Source: Alphaproteobacteria bacterium (GTDB lineage Bacteria; Pseudomonadota; Alphaproteobacteria; GCA-2731375). From it: 64,000 nt of DNA. The stretch covers positions 96,001 to 160,000 of the forward strand of contig CBDDBZ010000034.1 of NCBI GenBank assembly GCA_965225945.1, given 5' to 3'. The notes beneath the pieces are model-generated. The model did not search any database and had not been told where the DNA came from. It saw only the letters and a program-made list of their open reading frames with translations. The translations under genes were made by a program, and so were the position numbers. Shown here piece by piece: positions 945 through 12,380 of the stretch (the first letter of the stretch is position 1; every line of letters starts with the position of its first letter).

Positions 945-1168
945 CGACGGCGCGCGTTCTCGGCCTTTTCATCAGGCTCTATCAATGGACCCTCTCACCG
1001 GTTCTGGGCATGTCCTGCAGATATCATCCGACCTGTTCGCAATACGCTCTCGACGCGTTGGCGGCGCACGGCGCGGGCCGGGGAAGCTGGCTCGCGTTTC
1101 GCCGGATTCTCCGCTGCAACCCCTGGGGTGGCGCCGGGCACGATCCGATCCCGCCCGGGACGAGGTGA
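941..1168 (+). CDS. yidD: Membrane protein insertion efficiency factor YidD
   Basis: [10 protein letters not shown]...RILRCNPWG motif; lies between rnpA and yidC. Confidence 0.93.
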
Positions 1169-1181
1169 GAGGCGAGAGGTC

Positions 1182-2930
1182 ATGTCCGACCAGCGCAACC
1201 TGATCCTCGCGATCGCCCTTTCCGTCCTGGTGCTGCTCGGCTTCCAGTATTTCGCGCCGAAGATCGTCGAACAGCCGGAGCAGGTGGCGGGCGATCAGGC
1301 CCCGGCGCCGGCGGACGCCGAGGAGATACCCCGGGCGCCAGGCACCCCGATGCCCGAGAGCGCGGCCGGCGTGCCGGGCCCAAAGGCGCCGCAAATGGCG
1401 CTGGCGAAGCGCGAGGCCGCGCTCGGCAAGGTCGCGCGGGCGCCGATCACCAACGATCACCTGCAGGGCTCGGTCCCGCTCGTCGGTCGGCGGATCGACG
1501 ATCTGATCCTGACCGACTACAAGGAGACGCTGGACGAAGACAGCCCCCCGATCACGCTGTTCTCTCCGGTCGGTAGCGAGGCCGCCTATTACGCCGCCTT
1601 CGGCTGGTCGCCGGCCGACGAGACGGTCGGGGTGCCGGAGGACGACACCGTCTGGAAGGCGGAAGGCAGCGGGCTCGCGCCTGGCCGACCCCTGGTTTTG
1701 CGCTGGACCAACGCTTCCGGGCTTCGCTTCACCCGGCGCTACGAGGTCGACGAGAACTATCTCTTCACCATCACCCAGAGGGTCGAGAATACCGGCAAGG
1801 GCGCCGTCGCCCTCAGCCCCTGGGGCTACGTCAACCGGGCCGGCACGCCGGATACGCTCGGTTTCTATATCCTGCACGAGGGGCCGATCGGCGTGCTCGG
1901 CGGGCAGTTGCAGGAAATCGACTACGACGATCTCGTGGGCGAGCCGGCGGTCTCGCTGCCCTCGACCGGCGGCTGGATCGGCATCACCGACAAGTATTGG
2001 CTGGCGGCCCTGATCCCCGATCAGAACAGCCGCTTCACCGGCACCTTCCGGCACTACACGCACGACGGCGAGGACCGTTATCAGGCCAACTATCTCGGCG
2101 ACACCCAGACCTTGCAGCCGGGCGAGAGCACGGAGATCACCAACCGGCTGTTCGCCGGCGCCAAGCAGGTCAGGCTGATCGACACCTATGAAGAGCATTT
2201 CGGGATCGCGCTGTTCGACCGCGCCGTCGACTTCGGGATCTTCTATTATCTGACCAAGCCGCTGTTCTACGTGATCGACTTCTTCAACCGGCTGATCGGC
2301 AACTTCGGCGTCGCGATTCTGCTGCTGACCGTCTGCATCAAGATCGTGTTCTTTCCGCTGGCCAACAAATCCTACAAGTCGATGAGCCGGATGAAGGCGT
2401 TGCAGCCGGAGATGACGAAGCTGAAGGAGCGTTTCGGCGAGGATCGCCAGAAGCTCAATCAGGAGATGATGGCCCTCTACAAGAAGGAGAAGGTCAATCC
2501 CGCCGCCGGCTGCCTGCCGATCGTGCTCCAGATCCCGGTCTTCTTCGCCCTCTACAAGGTCCTCTTCGTCACCATCGAGATGCGCCACGCGCCGTTCTAT
2601 GGCTGGATCCACGACCTCTCCGCCGCCGACCCGACCACGCTGTTCAACCTCTTCGGCCTGATCCCCTTCGATCCCCCGCAGTTTCTGATGATCGGCATCT
2701 GGCCGCTTCTGATGGGGATCTCCATGTTCCTGCAGCAGAAGCTCAATCCCCAGCCGACCGACCCCATCCAGGCCAAGGTGTTCCTCTTCATGCCGCTCAT
2801 CTTCACCTTCATCCTGGCGCCGTTCCCGGCCGGGCTGGTGATCTACTGGACCTGGAACAACCTGCTGTCGATGACCCAGCAATACATCATCATGCGACGC
2901 ATGGGAGTGCCGATCGGCGGCAAGCGTTGA
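1182..2930 (+). CDS. yidC: Membrane protein insertase YidC
   Basis: MSDQRNLILAIALS start, GWIGITDKYW, GCLPIVLQIPVFFALY, IYWTWNNLLS motifs. Confidence 0.97.
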   Translation: MSDQRNLILAIALSVLVLLGFQYFAPKIVEQPEQVAGDQAPAPADAEEIPRAPGTPMPESAAGVPGPKAPQMALAKREAALGKVARAPITNDHLQGSVPLVGRRIDDLILTDYKETLDEDSPPITLFSPVGSEAAYYAAFGWSPADETVGVPEDDTVWKAEGSGLAPGRPLVLRWTNASGLRFTRRYEVDENYLFTITQRVENTGKGAVALSPWGYVNRAGTPDTLGFYILHEGPIGVLGGQLQEIDYDDLVGEPAVSLPSTGGWIGITDKYWLAALIPDQNSRFTGTFRHYTHDGEDRYQANYLGDTQTLQPGESTEITNRLFAGAKQVRLIDTYEEHFGIALFDRAVDFGIFYYLTKPLFYVIDFFNRLIGNFGVAILLLTVCIKIVFFPLANKSYKSMSRMKALQPEMTKLKERFGEDRQKLNQEMMALYKKEKVNPAAGCLPIVLQIPVFFALYKVLFVTIEMRHAPFYGWIHDLSAADPTTLFNLFGLIPFDPPQFLMIGIWPLLMGISMFLQQKLNPQPTDPIQAKVFLFMPLIFTFILAPFPAGLVIYWTWNNLLSMTQQYIIMRRMGVPIGGKR

Positions 2931-2963
2931 GGCCCGACGTGAAAGCCCCCGAAGCCGGCCTGG

Positions 2964-3251
2964 CGGGTTCTTTGTCGCCACGCATGCGCGTGGCATGGCC
3001 CGGCCGCCGGGTTCTTTGTCGCCACGCATGCGCGTGGCATGGCCCGGCCAGCCCGCTCCCCCGCCCAACCACCCGAGCGTCCCGGCCGGGCCATGCCACT
3101 CCCGCCGGAGCTTCCCGGACCGGGCGGCGTGCCGGGGCTCCCGCTCATGGGTGGTTGGGCGGGGGAGCGGGAGGCCCGGCACGCCGCGCGAGCGGCGATT
3201 GTCAAAGACTCCGGAGGCCCGGCGGGCCGCGCGAGCGGCCATCGACAAAGA
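2964..3251. repeat. Composite palindromic intergenic repeat (REP/BIME- or MITE-like)
   Basis: Tandem unit with 44-bp period (2964, 3008) containing hairpin GCCACGC-ATGC-GCGTGGC; perfect 23-bp inverted repeat 3052-3074/3149-3171; outer TCTTTGTCG ... CGACAAAGA. Confidence 0.75.
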
Positions 3252-3270
3252 GCGGCGGGGGAGAGGGCCG

Positions 3271-3963
3271 GTGATGGCGCCGGCTCGTTCCGACACCGGG
3301 GCCACGCCGGCGGACGCGGCCGAGCTCGAGGCCGGCCGCCTGCTCTTCGCCCGGGAATGCCGCTTTCTCGCCGGCGCCGCGATCGCCGCGCAACTGCCCG
3401 CCGACAGCCTGCCCGAGATCGCCTTCGCCGGCCGCTCCAACGTCGGCAAATCGAGCCTGATCAACGCGCTGACCGGCCGCAACACGCTTGCGCGGACCTC
3501 GATCACGCCCGGCCGGACACGTCAGGTGAACTTCTTCGAGCTCGACCGCCGGCTGATGCTGGTGGACCTGCCGGGCTATGGCTATGCGCGCGCCTCCAAG
3601 GGTGAGATCAAGCGCTGGAACAGGCTGATCCACGACTATCTCAGGGGCCGCGTCAGCCTGCGGCGCGTGGTGCTGCTGATCGACGCGCGCCGGGGGTTGC
3701 GCGCGAGCGACGGCGAGGTGATGGACCGCCTGGACCAAGCCGCCGTGGTCTACCAGGCGGTGCTGACCAAGGTGGACAAGGCGCCGGCGGGCGAGCTGGA
3801 GGCGATCCAGGATGCCGTATCGCGCGAGCTCGCGCGCCGGCCCGCCGCCCACCCCGAAGTCCTCGCGACCAGCACCCGCGAAGGGCTCGGAATCGGCGAA
3901 CTGCGCGCCCGGCTCGCCGCGCTTTCGCTGGCCGATCCGCTGGGCTATAAGCCCGGCCCATGA
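3271..3963 (+). CDS. engB: Ribosome biogenesis GTP-binding protein YihA/EngB
   Basis: [19 protein letters not shown] GTPase motifs; exact start uncertain (3271 or 3274). Confidence 0.93.
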
Positions 3964-8915: not shown

Positions 8916-9520
8916 AGCCCCGTGAAGCAGTCCTTCGCGTCGCTCAGGTCTTCTTGCGCCTGTAGCGGAGCCGGCGTTTCTTCCGCTTGCCTTTCCGGAT
9001 CTTGGACGAACCGGGCGCCCTGTAGCGCCACCAGGCGATCTCGTTGACCGAGAAGATCGGCCGGTAGTGCCGGATCTTGGCGGCGTCGGCGACGATGGTG
9101 ATCTGGTTGTCGAGGATCAGCGACTTGCCGTTAACCTGGACCATCAGAATCGCGTGCGGCACCCTGAGGTTCATGTCCTGGACCACCAGGATCCGCATCT
9201 TGTCCTTCGGGAAGCCGATGGCGCGGAGCGAGAGATACTTGGCGATCGCGTAGTCCTCGCAGTCGCCGTTCTTGGCGAAGAACTGGGCGGGGGTGGCCCA
9301 ATAATCCTTCTTGCCCCAATTGACGGGATCGAGGATGTATCGGGACTTATTGTGGAAATTATTGATTTTATGTAACTACCCAGGTACCCCGCTCTTGACC
9401 GCGAGAGGATGATGTAGGTGGTCGCCGGGGCCGGGTTTCCGCCGCCGCGTCGTTGATCGTCTCTTGACTCCATAGAATCGGGCGTCTATGGGTTGCGCTC
9501 TCGTGTGACGGGAGCGGCGC

Positions 9521-10186
9521 GTGGAATATTTTGGGTCGAAGGCGACGAGCGGTCTGTGCCAGGCGCTGATTGCGCTGATGCCGCCGCACAGCGTTTACAT
9601 CGAGAGCCACCTGGGGGGCGGTGCGCTGATGAAGCGCAAGCCAACGGGCGTGCGCTCGATCGGCATCGACCGCGATGCGCAGGCGCTCGAGGCCTTTGCC
9701 TGTGACTACCCGGTCGAGTTGGTGCATGGCTGTGCCCATGCCTTTTTGGCCTCGTTCCCGTTTCTGGGCCCGGAGCTGGTCTACAGCGATCCCCCCTATC
9801 TGCACGCGACCCGCCGTTCGGCACGGCGCTATCGCTTCGACTACGAGGAGGTCGACCATGTCGCGCTCCTGGACCTGCTCAAGGATCTGCCCTGCCAGGT
9901 GATGGTCTCGGGCCATCCCTCGGCGCTCTATGACGAGATGCTGGCGGGCTGGCGCAGTCTGGCGCTGCAGGTGACGACCCAGGCCCAGGTGCGGACCGAG
10001 GTCGTGTGGTTCAACTTCGCGCCCGACCGGGTGCATTGGGCGAGCTACGCAGGCCGGAACTTCACCGACCGCCAGCGCATCAAGCGTAAGGCGGCCAACT
10101 GGGGCCGGCGTTACAAGGCCTTGCCGGCGGGCGAACGCCTCGCGGTGCTGGCCGCCATGATGGCCGTCGATGCCGAGGACCCGTGA
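9521..10186 (+). CDS. DNA adenine methyltransferase (D12/Dam-like, compact)
   Basis: Motif order X (YFGSK), I (ESHLGGG), II (GIDRD), IV (YSDPPY), VI (MVSG), VIII (TEVVWFNF); 221 aa. Confidence 0.85.
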   Translation: MEYFGSKATSGLCQALIALMPPHSVYIESHLGGGALMKRKPTGVRSIGIDRDAQALEAFACDYPVELVHGCAHAFLASFPFLGPELVYSDPPYLHATRRSARRYRFDYEEVDHVALLDLLKDLPCQVMVSGHPSALYDEMLAGWRSLALQVTTQAQVRTEVVWFNFAPDRVHWASYAGRNFTDRQRIKRKAANWGRRYKALPAGERLAVLAAMMAVDAEDP

Positions 10187-11721
10187 CGCTGTCGCGCTGG
10201 CACGAGGACCTCGCCGCCCATGACGAGGCCTTCGCGTGCCTGCAAGATCTTCTTGACCCCTCATCCTTCGCAATCACAGTCGTCAAGGCCTTCCGGGAAT
10301 GGGGCCAGGGGCTGTTGCGCCTGGCCACGGCGCTCGTCCGGGAGAATGCCGCGCTCGAGCGGGAGAACGCGACCCTGCGGGACCGCATCGCCGAGCTCGA
10401 GCGGAGCGCGGCGCTTGACAGCACCACCAGCAGCAAGCCGCCCGCCAGCGACGGCCTGCGCAAGAAGAGCGGAACCCAGAGGCGCACCCGAAGCCAGCGC
10501 GGCAAGTCCGGCAGGCCAAGCGGCGGCCAGCCGGGCCACAAGGGAACGACGCTGGCGCGGACCGAGAGCCCGGACCATGTTGTGGATCATGACCCCTCCG
10601 CCTGTTCGGGCTGCGGCGCACCGCTGTCGGACGCCGACCGTCACCGCGCGCCCGTCTGTCGACAGGTCTTCGATGTGCCCGAGCCACGCCCCCTGGAGGT
10701 CACCGAACACCGCGCCCATCGCTGCCTCTGCGGCGCCTGCGCCACCGTGACAGGAGCCGTCTTCCCGGACGGCGTGACCGCCCCGGTCCAGTACGGGCCA
10801 CGCATCACCGCCTGGGTGAGCTACCTGCTGTACGCCCAGTTCGTTCCCGAGAAGCGCTTGGCCGAACTCATGAGCGACCTCTTCGCAGTGTCCATCTCCA
10901 CAGCCACGATCACCGCCATGGGCCGGCGAATCGCCAGGCGCTTCGAGCCCTTCCTCGCCCATGTCGCAGACGTGATCCGCACAGCGGTCCCGGTCAAGCA
11001 CCTCGACGAAACCGGCCTGCGGATCGCCGCCCGTACCCGCTGGCTCCACGTGCTGTGCACCCCATTCCTGACCGTCCTGCGCATCGGCGCGGGACGCGGC
11101 GATGTCGAAAAGGACCTCGAAGGCATCCTCATCCATGACGATTACGCCGCCTACTTCACCCTCAAGGGCGTGCGCCACGGCGCCTGCAACGCCCATCACC
11201 TGCGCGAACTCCAGGCCCTGATCGACATCGAGAAGGAAGACTGGGCAAAGAGCATGCACCGCCTCCTTGAGCGCGCACACAGGGCTACCCGCTTCTCCCG
11301 TGAGAACGGCCGCGACGTGCCCGCCTCCCTGGTGGCCCGGATCTCGCGGGCCTGGGCCCGCATCCTCGACCACGCCATCGCCTTCCACGAGGCGCAGCCG
11401 CCGCTCCGGACCGGCAAGCGCGGACGAAAGAAACGCCGCATCGGTCATAACCTCGCGCTCCGCCTCCGCAAGCACAAGGAGGGATGCCTGCGATTCCTCA
11501 CCGACCCGCGCACGCCGTTTACGAACAATGAGGCCGAACGTGACCTCCGAATGGCCAAGCTGCGCCAGAAGATCTCCGGTGGCTTCCGCTCCGAGAGGGG
11601 TGCCTACAACTTCGCCAGAATGCGTGCCGTCATCGCCACCGCCCGAAAGCAAGGCTGGAACGTCCTCCAGACCCTGGTGCATCCCGATCCGATGCAACTA
11701 ATCCCCCAACTGCGCCTCTGA
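10183..11721 (+). CDS. IS66 family transposase (TnpC type)
   Basis: Coiled coil, SSKPPASD, GGQPGHKG, CSGC/CLCGAC zinc ribbon, HLDETG, HDDY, CNAHHLREL, TNNEAERDLR. Confidence 0.95.
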   Translation: MTLSRWHEDLAAHDEAFACLQDLLDPSSFAITVVKAFREWGQGLLRLATALVRENAALERENATLRDRIAELERSAALDSTTSSKPPASDGLRKKSGTQRRTRSQRGKSGRPSGGQPGHKGTTLARTESPDHVVDHDPSACSGCGAPLSDADRHRAPVCRQVFDVPEPRPLEVTEHRAHRCLCGACATVTGAVFPDGVTAPVQYGPRITAWVSYLLYAQFVPEKRLAELMSDLFAVSISTATITAMGRRIARRFEPFLAHVADVIRTAVPVKHLDETGLRIAARTRWLHVLCTPFLTVLRIGAGRGDVEKDLEGILIHDDYAAYFTLKGVRHGACNAHHLRELQALIDIEKEDWAKSMHRLLERAHRATRFSRENGRDVPASLVARISRAWARILDHAIAFHEAQPPLRTGKRGRKKRRIGHNLALRLRKHKEGCLRFLTDPRTPFTNNEAERDLRMAKLRQKISGGFRSERGAYNFARMRAVIATARKQGWNVLQTLVHPDPMQLIPQLRL

Positions 11722-12380
11722 GAACACCGGCACCGCTACCAGCCCGGACCCCCACGATCCCTCACATACAAACGCTCGGGCCAATCAGACCTGGGTAGTT
11801 ACGATTTTATTGAGTTTACGAATGGTTCGCTCGGTTTTGACGCTTTCCAGGAAGGCCACCCAGGCCTTGTACTCGGCCTCGGTCTTGCCGCGTTCCCTGG
11901 CATAGCGCTCGAGCGTGCCCGTCCACTTCGGAAAGGCCTTCAAGCCTTCCTTGCGGGTCTCCATATAGCCGAAGACGCCCGGTTTGCCCTTGGCCGCTAG
12001 CGCCGGGGCGGGGGCAAGAGCGAGGCAGACCAGCGCCAGCGCCGCCGCCAGAAGTGGGCCGCCACGGCGCCGCGTCGAAGTCGACCGATCAGGCATGCTT
12101 GCCATATTACGCGCCGGGGCCCGAGAACCAAGTGACGACGCGCACGCACCCGTTCGCGGGCCGCCATGGCGGCCTCGGGCGCCTCGATTGAAGGCAATTT
12201 CGCGATATTGCGACTTTTTCCTCGGAATTCACCTCCTCCGACCCTATATTGGAGACTGGGTGAGGGCGAACCCGCCATGACCCAGCAGCAGTATTTCCCT
12301 GCTCCTCCCGGAGCCAAAAATAATATTTCCGGGGGAGCAGGGATTTTTCTTGCCCGTGTGTGGCCATGCGCCCCGTGCCG

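Follow-up and report, generated by a model that had tools for sequence, protein, structure and literature searches.

An insertion sequence (IS) of the IS66 family, 2431 bp long, occupies positions 9372-11802 of a 64,000-nucleotide stretch of alphaproteobacterial DNA (GenBank assembly GCA_965225945.1), where it is inserted in a LapG-like (PF06035) gene and carries a small putative DNA adenine methylase ahead of its transposase. The stretch, hereafter the window, comprises positions 96,001-160,000 of contig CBDDBZ010000034.1, and coordinates are given within it (Table 1). Only two open reading frames (ORFs) fill the element, the upstream one being the methylase; neither tnpA nor tnpB of canonical IS66 elements is found among them, and tnpC is the sole recognisable transposition gene. 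A sequence-only reading of this DNA had proposed a 14-bp terminal inverted repeat (TIR) and an 8-bp target-site duplication (TSD) around a 2431-bp element, exactly two genes in the form of a methyltransferase and an IS66 transposase, an overlap of the two as GTGA, and flanks that rejoin as an intact lapG-like gene, and on all of these points our analysis agrees. Both repeats were located, the motifs YFGSK, ESHLGGG and DPPY stand in the translation of the upstream ORF, and the overlap is read in the sequence at 10183-10186. The host-gene frame runs from 12105 to 11803 in exactly 101 codons, resumes in frame at 9363 and stays open to the stop at 8944; its 139-amino-acid (aa) C-terminal part matches PF06035 Peptidase_C93/BTLCP (LapG family; 4.2e-16), and the 5' part alone gave no Pfam match. 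Moreover, contigs from four public runs part from the window flanks at, or at most 3 bases from, both ends of the element, the loose end 5' of the element being at 9372 in X1, X5 and X18 and the one 3' of it at 11802 in X1, X5 and X2 and at 11804/11805 in X18, so that the element ends are fixed independently.

Table 1. Features of the methylase-bearing IS66-family element and of the host gene that it interrupts (window coordinates).
Feature	Positions	Strand	Description
3' part of disrupted host gene	8944..9371	-	BTLCP/LapG-like transglutaminase-like cysteine peptidase
Left TSD copy	9364..9371	.	8 bp, GATTTTAT
Left TIR	9372..9385	+	GTAACTACCCAGGT; 14 nt, 100% complementary to right TIR
Promoter-like cassette head	9464..9492	+	-35 box, CATAG/CTATG palindrome, -10-like box
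Methylase ORF	9521..10186	+	221 aa, GTG start, GGGAG just 5'
tnpC ORF	10183..11721	+	512 aa, GTG start overlapping methylase stop
Right TIR	11789..11802	+	ACCTGGGTAGTTAC; 14 nt
Right TSD copy	11803..11810	.	8 bp, GATTTTAT
5' part of disrupted host gene	11803..12105	-	101 codons, signal-peptide-like N-terminus

TnpC matches NF033517 with 290.7 bits (cut-off 180) and PF03050 with an E-value of 3.9e-41, and its domains are DUF6444, a weakly matched zf-IS66 and DDE_Tnp_IS66. Members of the IS66 family have TIRs starting with GTAA and duplicate 8 bp of their target, and the TIR GTAACTACCCAGGT together with the 8-bp TSD has this form. The element resembles the ISBst12 group (ISBst12, ISDge4) in its DUF6444/zf-IS66/DDE_Tnp_IS66 TnpC, its GTAAC ends, its 8-bp TSD and the lack of tnpA and tnpB, and the nearest plasmid-borne relatives of its TnpC, all below 50% identity, include Geobacillus and Deinococcus elements. 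For ISDge4, the relevant passage of PMC12898284 gives the TIRs GTGACTACTCAGCA / GTAACTGCTCAGCA and an 8-bp direct repeat. In contrast to the single ORF of the ISBst12 group, a methylase and a promoter-like region are present here between the left end and tnpC.

Sixteen copies of the element at 99.9% identity or more are present in the genome (39 contigs, 6.27 Mb, with a contamination estimate of 5.58%), and all of them encode the 221-aa protein unchanged, in keeping with the earlier suggestion that the methylase travels as part of the element. A perfect 8-bp TSD flanks ten of the 16, nine identified by script and one, a split copy, by eye; the TSD matches at 7/8 positions in two further copies and at 6/8 in one, is missing in two, and was left unscored in one whose alignment begins at base 5. 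The element is thus an active, mobile IS66-family unit with the methylase as an integral part. The split copy (C38:239517-243982) is interrupted by a foreign insertion of about 2 kb, at whose junction query positions 2273-2287 are duplicated, and its outer 8-bp TSD CATCGAGG is intact. Two other copies (C37:248802-251232 and C33:300329-302759) have identical flanks and the same TSD AAATATTC, which suggests a duplicated segment or assembly redundancy, and they may therefore represent one insertion counted twice. Among 30 relative genomes the methylase was found in one, G023, which belongs to another family of the same class and carries copies at C1:1630566, 2585504, 3749325 and 4381245 with 99-100% protein identity; it was not found in two genomes of the same genus or in 16 others of the same family. 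A near-identical protein in another family, together with its apparent lack in 18 genomes of its own, indicates that the element arrived by horizontal transfer, and the sequences point to a recent transfer between distantly related hosts.

A sister IS66 element without the methylase is present in the same genome and offers a contrast to the window element. The TIR of the copy examined (L107, C35:216500-221000; element at 999-3366), GTAACTGCCCAGGTA, is nearly that of the window element, its TnpC shares 54% identity with the window TnpC, and at least 20 partial matches to this sister element occur in the genome. In this copy tnpC is broken after ...SSDGLN by a 757-bp segment that has perfect 44-bp inverted repeats (1295-1338 / 2008-2051) and a minus-strand ORF of 102 aa with a leucine-rich-repeat-variant domain (PF25591, 2.5e-8).

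The methylase itself is an unusual member of a well-known class. YFGSK near its N-terminus is followed by motif I (ESHLGGG, residues 28-34) and motif IV (DPPY, residues 90-93), and since motif I precedes motif IV it is not a beta-class enzyme. No Pfam match was obtained at E<=0.01, and the match to TIGR00571 (Dam), 24.2 bits around DPPY, lies below the cut-off of 114.85; PADLOC MTase_II (7.4e-22) and phrog_56 'DNA methyltransferase' (1.1e-19) were matched. As the curated Pfam and TIGR thresholds are missed, its assignment as a methylase relies on its motifs, on searches with profiles and on the fold predicted for it. In a set of 5.8 billion proteins, 3793 homologs were found at E<=1e-3, the best 120 of which are all at least 70% identical and about 220 aa long, and a library clustered at 50% yielded 5554 clusters at E<=1e-3 and 521 at <=1e-30. 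The JGI and NCBI names encountered for these homologs were 'DNA adenine methylase', 'DNA methylase' and 'hypothetical protein', and six NCBI/ENA clusters are left unnamed. An alignment of 50 sequences, reaching down to 38% identity, revealed D90, P91, P92, G5, H23, H113 and S130 as invariant and K7, E28, G32, G34 and Y93 as at least 90% conserved, and the catalytic and S-adenosylmethionine (SAM)-binding residues are likewise invariant or nearly so across 22 close homologs.

Membership in the D12 class emerges from the family as a whole, of which 41 of 50 members match PF02086 (E<=0.01), and a search with the family profile retrieves DpnM (1.3e-9) and E. coli Dam (about 5e-6). Both alignments come in two pieces. 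Query residues 3-65 pair with DpnM 17-77 and residues 81-159 with DpnM 183-266, and the corresponding parts of Dam are 11-68 and 155-242, leaving DpnM 78-182 (about 105 aa) and Dam 69-154 (about 86 aa) without a counterpart in the methylase. We take this unmatched stretch to be the helical DNA-recognition domain with its beta-hairpin. The sequence-only reading had remarked that little room is left for such a domain, which fits the roughly 105 aa of DpnM that are missing. An AlphaFold (AF2) model, with a predicted local distance difference test (pLDDT) of 91.3 and a predicted template modelling score (pTM) of 0.85, has a Rossmann fold followed by two long helices (residues 181-199 and 203-219) that bear a conserved basic stretch; by Foldseek it aligns best to the PDB structures of DpnM, E. 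coli Dam and McbE1 (TM-scores about 0.5). A predicted homodimer scored 0.31 and 0.24 against a mark of 0.42, which we weighed neither way with respect to binding. The protein is like the D12/alpha methylases Dam, DpnM and T4 Dam in its N-terminal xxGxK and in the placing of motif I before DPPY, and unlike them in having no recognition domain and an extra conserved C-terminal helix pair. It is accordingly described as a catalytic-domain-only D12/Dam-class enzyme with a family-specific basic two-helix C-terminus, its activity being predicted from sequence and model.

How this methylase is linked to transposases elsewhere was surveyed in a scan of one genome per species, which gave 404 confirmed stretches; locus counts below refer to the best 80 of these 404, sorted by degenerate-motif scans, with proteins compared by pairwise BLASTP. 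The 80 loci come from metagenome-assembled genomes (MAGs) labelled as Alpha-, Beta- and Gammaproteobacteria, Tectimicrobiota, Binatia, Caldilineaceae, Blastopirellula, Bacillota, Thermodesulfobacteriota and Acidobacteria, and many of these genomes hold multiple methylase copies. In 47 of the 80 loci a co-oriented IS66 motif, NNxAER, was found 1.2-1.35 kb past the methylase, and Pfam confirmed IS66 in all five loci checked, drawn from five phylum-level groups, so homologs do recurrently lie immediately upstream of IS66 tnpC. A further three loci (L027, L085, L087) have a degraded IS66. The second partner, seen in 19 loci from five records, is a transposase with a WKIENE motif about 1 kb downstream, which belongs to DDE_Tnp_1 (IS4 superfamily) with 27 bits (cut-off 23); DDE_Tnp_1_assoc scores 27-30 bits, under its cut-off of 32.3, and NCBIfam gives a weak IS4 match only. 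The third partner is IS701, recognised by motif in four loci (NF049999 with 307 bits, cut-off 170), and two more (L068, L070) are IS701-like. Among the remaining loci, L042 has only a 128-aa fragment without family match, L056 stops 49 bp past the methylase gene and L102 has no transposase. Two betaproteobacterial loci from the same MAG offered other candidate partners, both rejected. At L077 (4826-6704) an IS of the IS1634 family lies behind the methylase, and its own perfect 18-bp TIRs leave the methylase outside, which makes it a separate insertion and not a fourth partner. The Transposase_29 gene at L057 (5089-6231), on the opposite strand and at a contig end, was handled in the same way.

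In the IS4-like element, the methylase lies within ends that read CAGCAGTTCTCATTTTG and its reverse complement; one genome holds four copies, whose 9-bp TSDs are all different (GTCGTCGGC, ACTTAGACC, GCGCGCCTC and TATACCGAA), and the GTG of the transposase overlaps the TGA of the methylase as GTGA, as in the window. The IS701 element encloses the methylase between CTCGACTTTGTACAT and its complement, with 5-bp TSDs (CTNAG) in four copies reading CTTAG, CTCAG, CTAAG and CTAAG. With the methylase inside the ends of all three, three unrelated transposition systems bear the same gene in the same place, and at least three unrelated families of transposase, namely IS66, the IS4-superfamily type and IS701, have thus acquired the cassette. 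Of the earlier proposal that the methylase is an IS66 accessory gene, the linkage to IS66 stands and the restriction to that family does not, given that the same cassette, at 70-84% protein identity, sits within TIRs of the IS4 superfamily and the IS701 family. The IS701-type element is about 2.78 kb long and has, left of the methylase promoter, an additional conserved segment of about 450 bp (L040, around 3447-3960; also L038, L039 and L041), in which a small divergent ORF of about 95 aa seems to lie; its translation at estimated coordinates met stop codons.

The conservation of the methylase differs sharply from that of its partners. Between the window and the Caldilineaceae and Bacillota elements the methylases are 74% and 72% identical, whereas the TnpCs are 35% and 30% identical, and in pairwise comparisons methylases are 70-79% identical across transposase types. 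A recent swap of the cassette between IS types within one genome was considered and found no support, since L043/L079 share 71% and L068/L094 78%, against 79% for the same-type pair L043/L088 from different genomes. By these identities the methylase is under very strong purifying selection, and being far more conserved than the accompanying transposases, it argues for a function that serves transposons as such. This bears on the view that the protein is a non-methylating DNA-binding factor, a repressor or transposition cofactor only, or else a neutral hitchhiker. A repurposed protein could well lie under the Pfam and NCBIfam thresholds and have lost its recognition domain, as is the case in the window; against this, little or no variation is seen at DPP(Y) and the SAM-binding glycines in either the 50 sequences or the 22 close homologs, the homologs are as numerous and as alike as given above, and the methylase outstrips the linked transposases in conservation, all of which makes this view very improbable.

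The sequence-only reading had overlooked a conserved promoter-like region and palindrome upstream of the methylase. A -35 box (TTGACT, 9464-9469) is followed by CATAG (9471-9475), and its inverted counterpart CTATG (9486-9490) runs into a -10-like box (TATGGG, 9487-9492), with a 17-nt spacer between the boxes. The arrangement TTGAC(A/T)-N-CATAG-N10-CTATG-(G/C)T was found upstream of the methylase in 14 of 14 aligned loci from the three contexts, with small deviations in three, and a strict search with TTGACNNCATAG-N9-13-CTATG matched 53 of 80 foreign loci and all 24 loci of this genome; the -10 box in most other loci is TATGGT or TATGCT. CATAG-N10-CTATG occurs 16 times in the genome, always within element copies, compared with two occurrences of a control pattern. 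With none outside the 16 elements, a wider regulon in this genome was rejected as an explanation of the palindrome. CATAG is found in the TIRs of none of the three IS types, which takes one candidate site off the ends, whose methylation as such may still occur. Of all proteins, only the methylase is shared by every context, and we infer that it is the most economical candidate for a reader of the palindrome, either by methylating or by binding it.

More distant relatives are widespread on other mobile DNA. Homologs at 45-55% identity, about 218-224 aa long and named 'DNA adenine methylase', occur in 189 plasmid records, 134 of them conjugative, for example beside traD/stbB/CcgAII (Xanthomonas oryzae) and beside radC (an IncP Photobacterium plasmid), and homologs at 43-48% identity lie downstream of a replication nickase gene in P2-like Salmonella phages. 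A search of 72,556 plasmid and 50,697 phage records recovered no member of the IS clade itself (at least 70% identity), the best matches reaching 55% and 48%. Both plasmid homologs examined have CATAG-N10-CTATG or CATAG-N10-CTATA. Upstream of the phage homologs (L108, 1370-1500; L109, 1400-1500) there are three to four copies of CAGTG(C/T)T, and a unit ...TGCTGCAGG is common to the phage homologs and the Xanthomonas plasmid homolog (L105, 5930-5980).

Such company suggests a passenger that protects against restriction: an orphan methylase of low specificity would pre-methylate the DNA of cell, plasmid and phage against the restriction systems of the next host, and its linkage to transposases would reflect co-mobility only. 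The plasmid relatives lie by transfer and stability genes, and others are carried by P2-like phages, the missing recognition domain is compatible with relaxed specificity, the PADLOC match is to MTase_II, and the element travels horizontally, as its near-identical copies in another family indicate. Orphan methylases are described as a prominent function of plasmid leading regions, thought to counter restriction, in a section of PMC11541004, and M.EcoGIX and M.BceJIII, beta-class enzymes according to the relevant part of PMC7736820, methylate single strands promiscuously in SAY context and protect entering plasmids. However, an IS is not itself a vehicle of transfer, so the benefit would be indirect, and a protective passenger leaves unexplained both the three unrelated transposases directly downstream in the same orientation, twice with GTGA, and the conservation of the palindrome in the promoter. 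We regard this explanation as the main rival of the one preferred below, a real possibility albeit a rather unlikely one.

Alternatively, the enzyme could act on transposition intermediates, as a methylase that works on single strands or alongside replication and marks or protects new IS copies, or that marks donor and target to time cleavage. The transposition chemistries of IS4- and IS66-type elements probably differ, and with three unrelated transposase families a shared intermediate is unlikely; the TIRs of the three elements, moreover, have neither a common motif nor CATAG. A catalytic-domain-only architecture would be compatible with such a role, and relaxed single-strand methylases do exist, M.EcoGIX and M.BceJIII with their SAY context being the examples in the part of PMC7736820 concerned, whereas M.EcoGIX is of the beta class and motif I precedes motif IV here. 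This alternative therefore appears improbable.

The explanation that we tentatively prefer, at somewhat less than even confidence, is a self-regulated methylase-transposase operon in which the methylase feeds back on its own promoter. One transcript from the cassette promoter would encode methylase and transposase, and translation of the transposase would be coupled to that of the methylase through the GTGA overlap. The methylase would act at its promoter by way of the CATAG half-sites, of which one lies just past the -35 box and the other over the -10 box, and would either methylate or bind these two sites. Transposase would then be produced mainly from an unmodified or hemimodified promoter, that is, in a new naive host or after the passage of a replication fork, and be throttled at steady state. 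In IS10/Tn10 and IS50/Tn5, methylation sites in the transposase promoter tie expression to the Dam methylation state, and the logic proposed here would be a portable, host-independent counterpart of that control: those elements use a host methylase and a GATC site, whereas here the IS would, by analogy, bring its own enzyme and its own sites.

Several observations weigh against a feedback operon of this kind. The overlap of the two genes is not universal, with gaps of 4-36 bp in other IS66-type loci and 67 bp in the IS701 type. The consensus sigma-70 scan of 9300-11900 called no promoter, so the promoter role of the cassette head is a putative one, and the -10 box of the window, TATGGG, is weak. 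The element is present in eight RNA-library rows from three studies, with contigs that span it end to end; such contigs cannot mark a transcript start and may be DNA carry-over. The palindrome was not found in the two P2-like phage homologs examined, which have the CAGTG repeats instead. A specificity of 5 bp is not easily squared with the missing recognition domain, and the activity and target of the methylase are themselves predictions from sequence and model. Finally, the sister IS66, which has no methylase, is no less numerous in the genome, so the methylase is not needed for proliferation.

A bolder form of the same idea, which we hold to be unlikely but worth stating, is that promoter, palindrome and methylase form a portable epigenetic switch behind which IS66, IS4-like and IS701 transposases each placed themselves. 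The IS would put N6-methyladenine on its own promoter, giving a burst of transposase in an unmethylated cell or upon fresh replication and silence thereafter, and it would be to ISs what the entry-expressed genes of leading regions are to plasmids.

ISs are usually described as bearing only what their movement requires. That some carry passenger methyltransferases, and that orphan methylases ride on mobile elements, is already known: transporter ISs (tIS) with methyltransferase passengers are recognised, for example IS220, IS1380 family, in a passage of PMC11891212 citing Siguier et al. The present elements are like tIS in that a non-transposase gene inside the IS ends moves along, as seen in the 16 copies of the window element and also in the IS4-like and IS701 elements. 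They are unlike tIS in that one cassette recurs in three transposase families, always upstream and co-oriented and twice overlapping, a comparison made for IS220 by description only. Contrary to the definition of a tIS passenger, this operon arrangement suggests that the methylase may be involved in transposition. With the orphan methylases of plasmids and phages the protein shares its small size, its location on mobile elements and the lack of a partner restriction enzyme; M.EcoGIX and M.BceJIII differ in their beta-class motif order and are not homologous to it, whereas the window methylase is homologous to the D12/alpha enzymes. In the literature searched, which covered article text and not supplements, ISfinder/TnPedia or REBASE, we found no account of a D12 cassette without recognition domain, of its recurrence with three transposases or of the palindrome.

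What the elements have in common is thus one highly conserved mini-methylase cassette ahead of the transposase in three unrelated IS families. If control by self-methylation holds true, an epigenetic throttle encoded by a transposon would have been found for the first time; if protection against restriction does, ISs would take their place beside plasmids and phages among the carriers of counter-defence. In addition, a natural Dam reduced to its predicted catalytic domain would be useful for understanding how target sites are located by adenine methylases that have no recognition domain.

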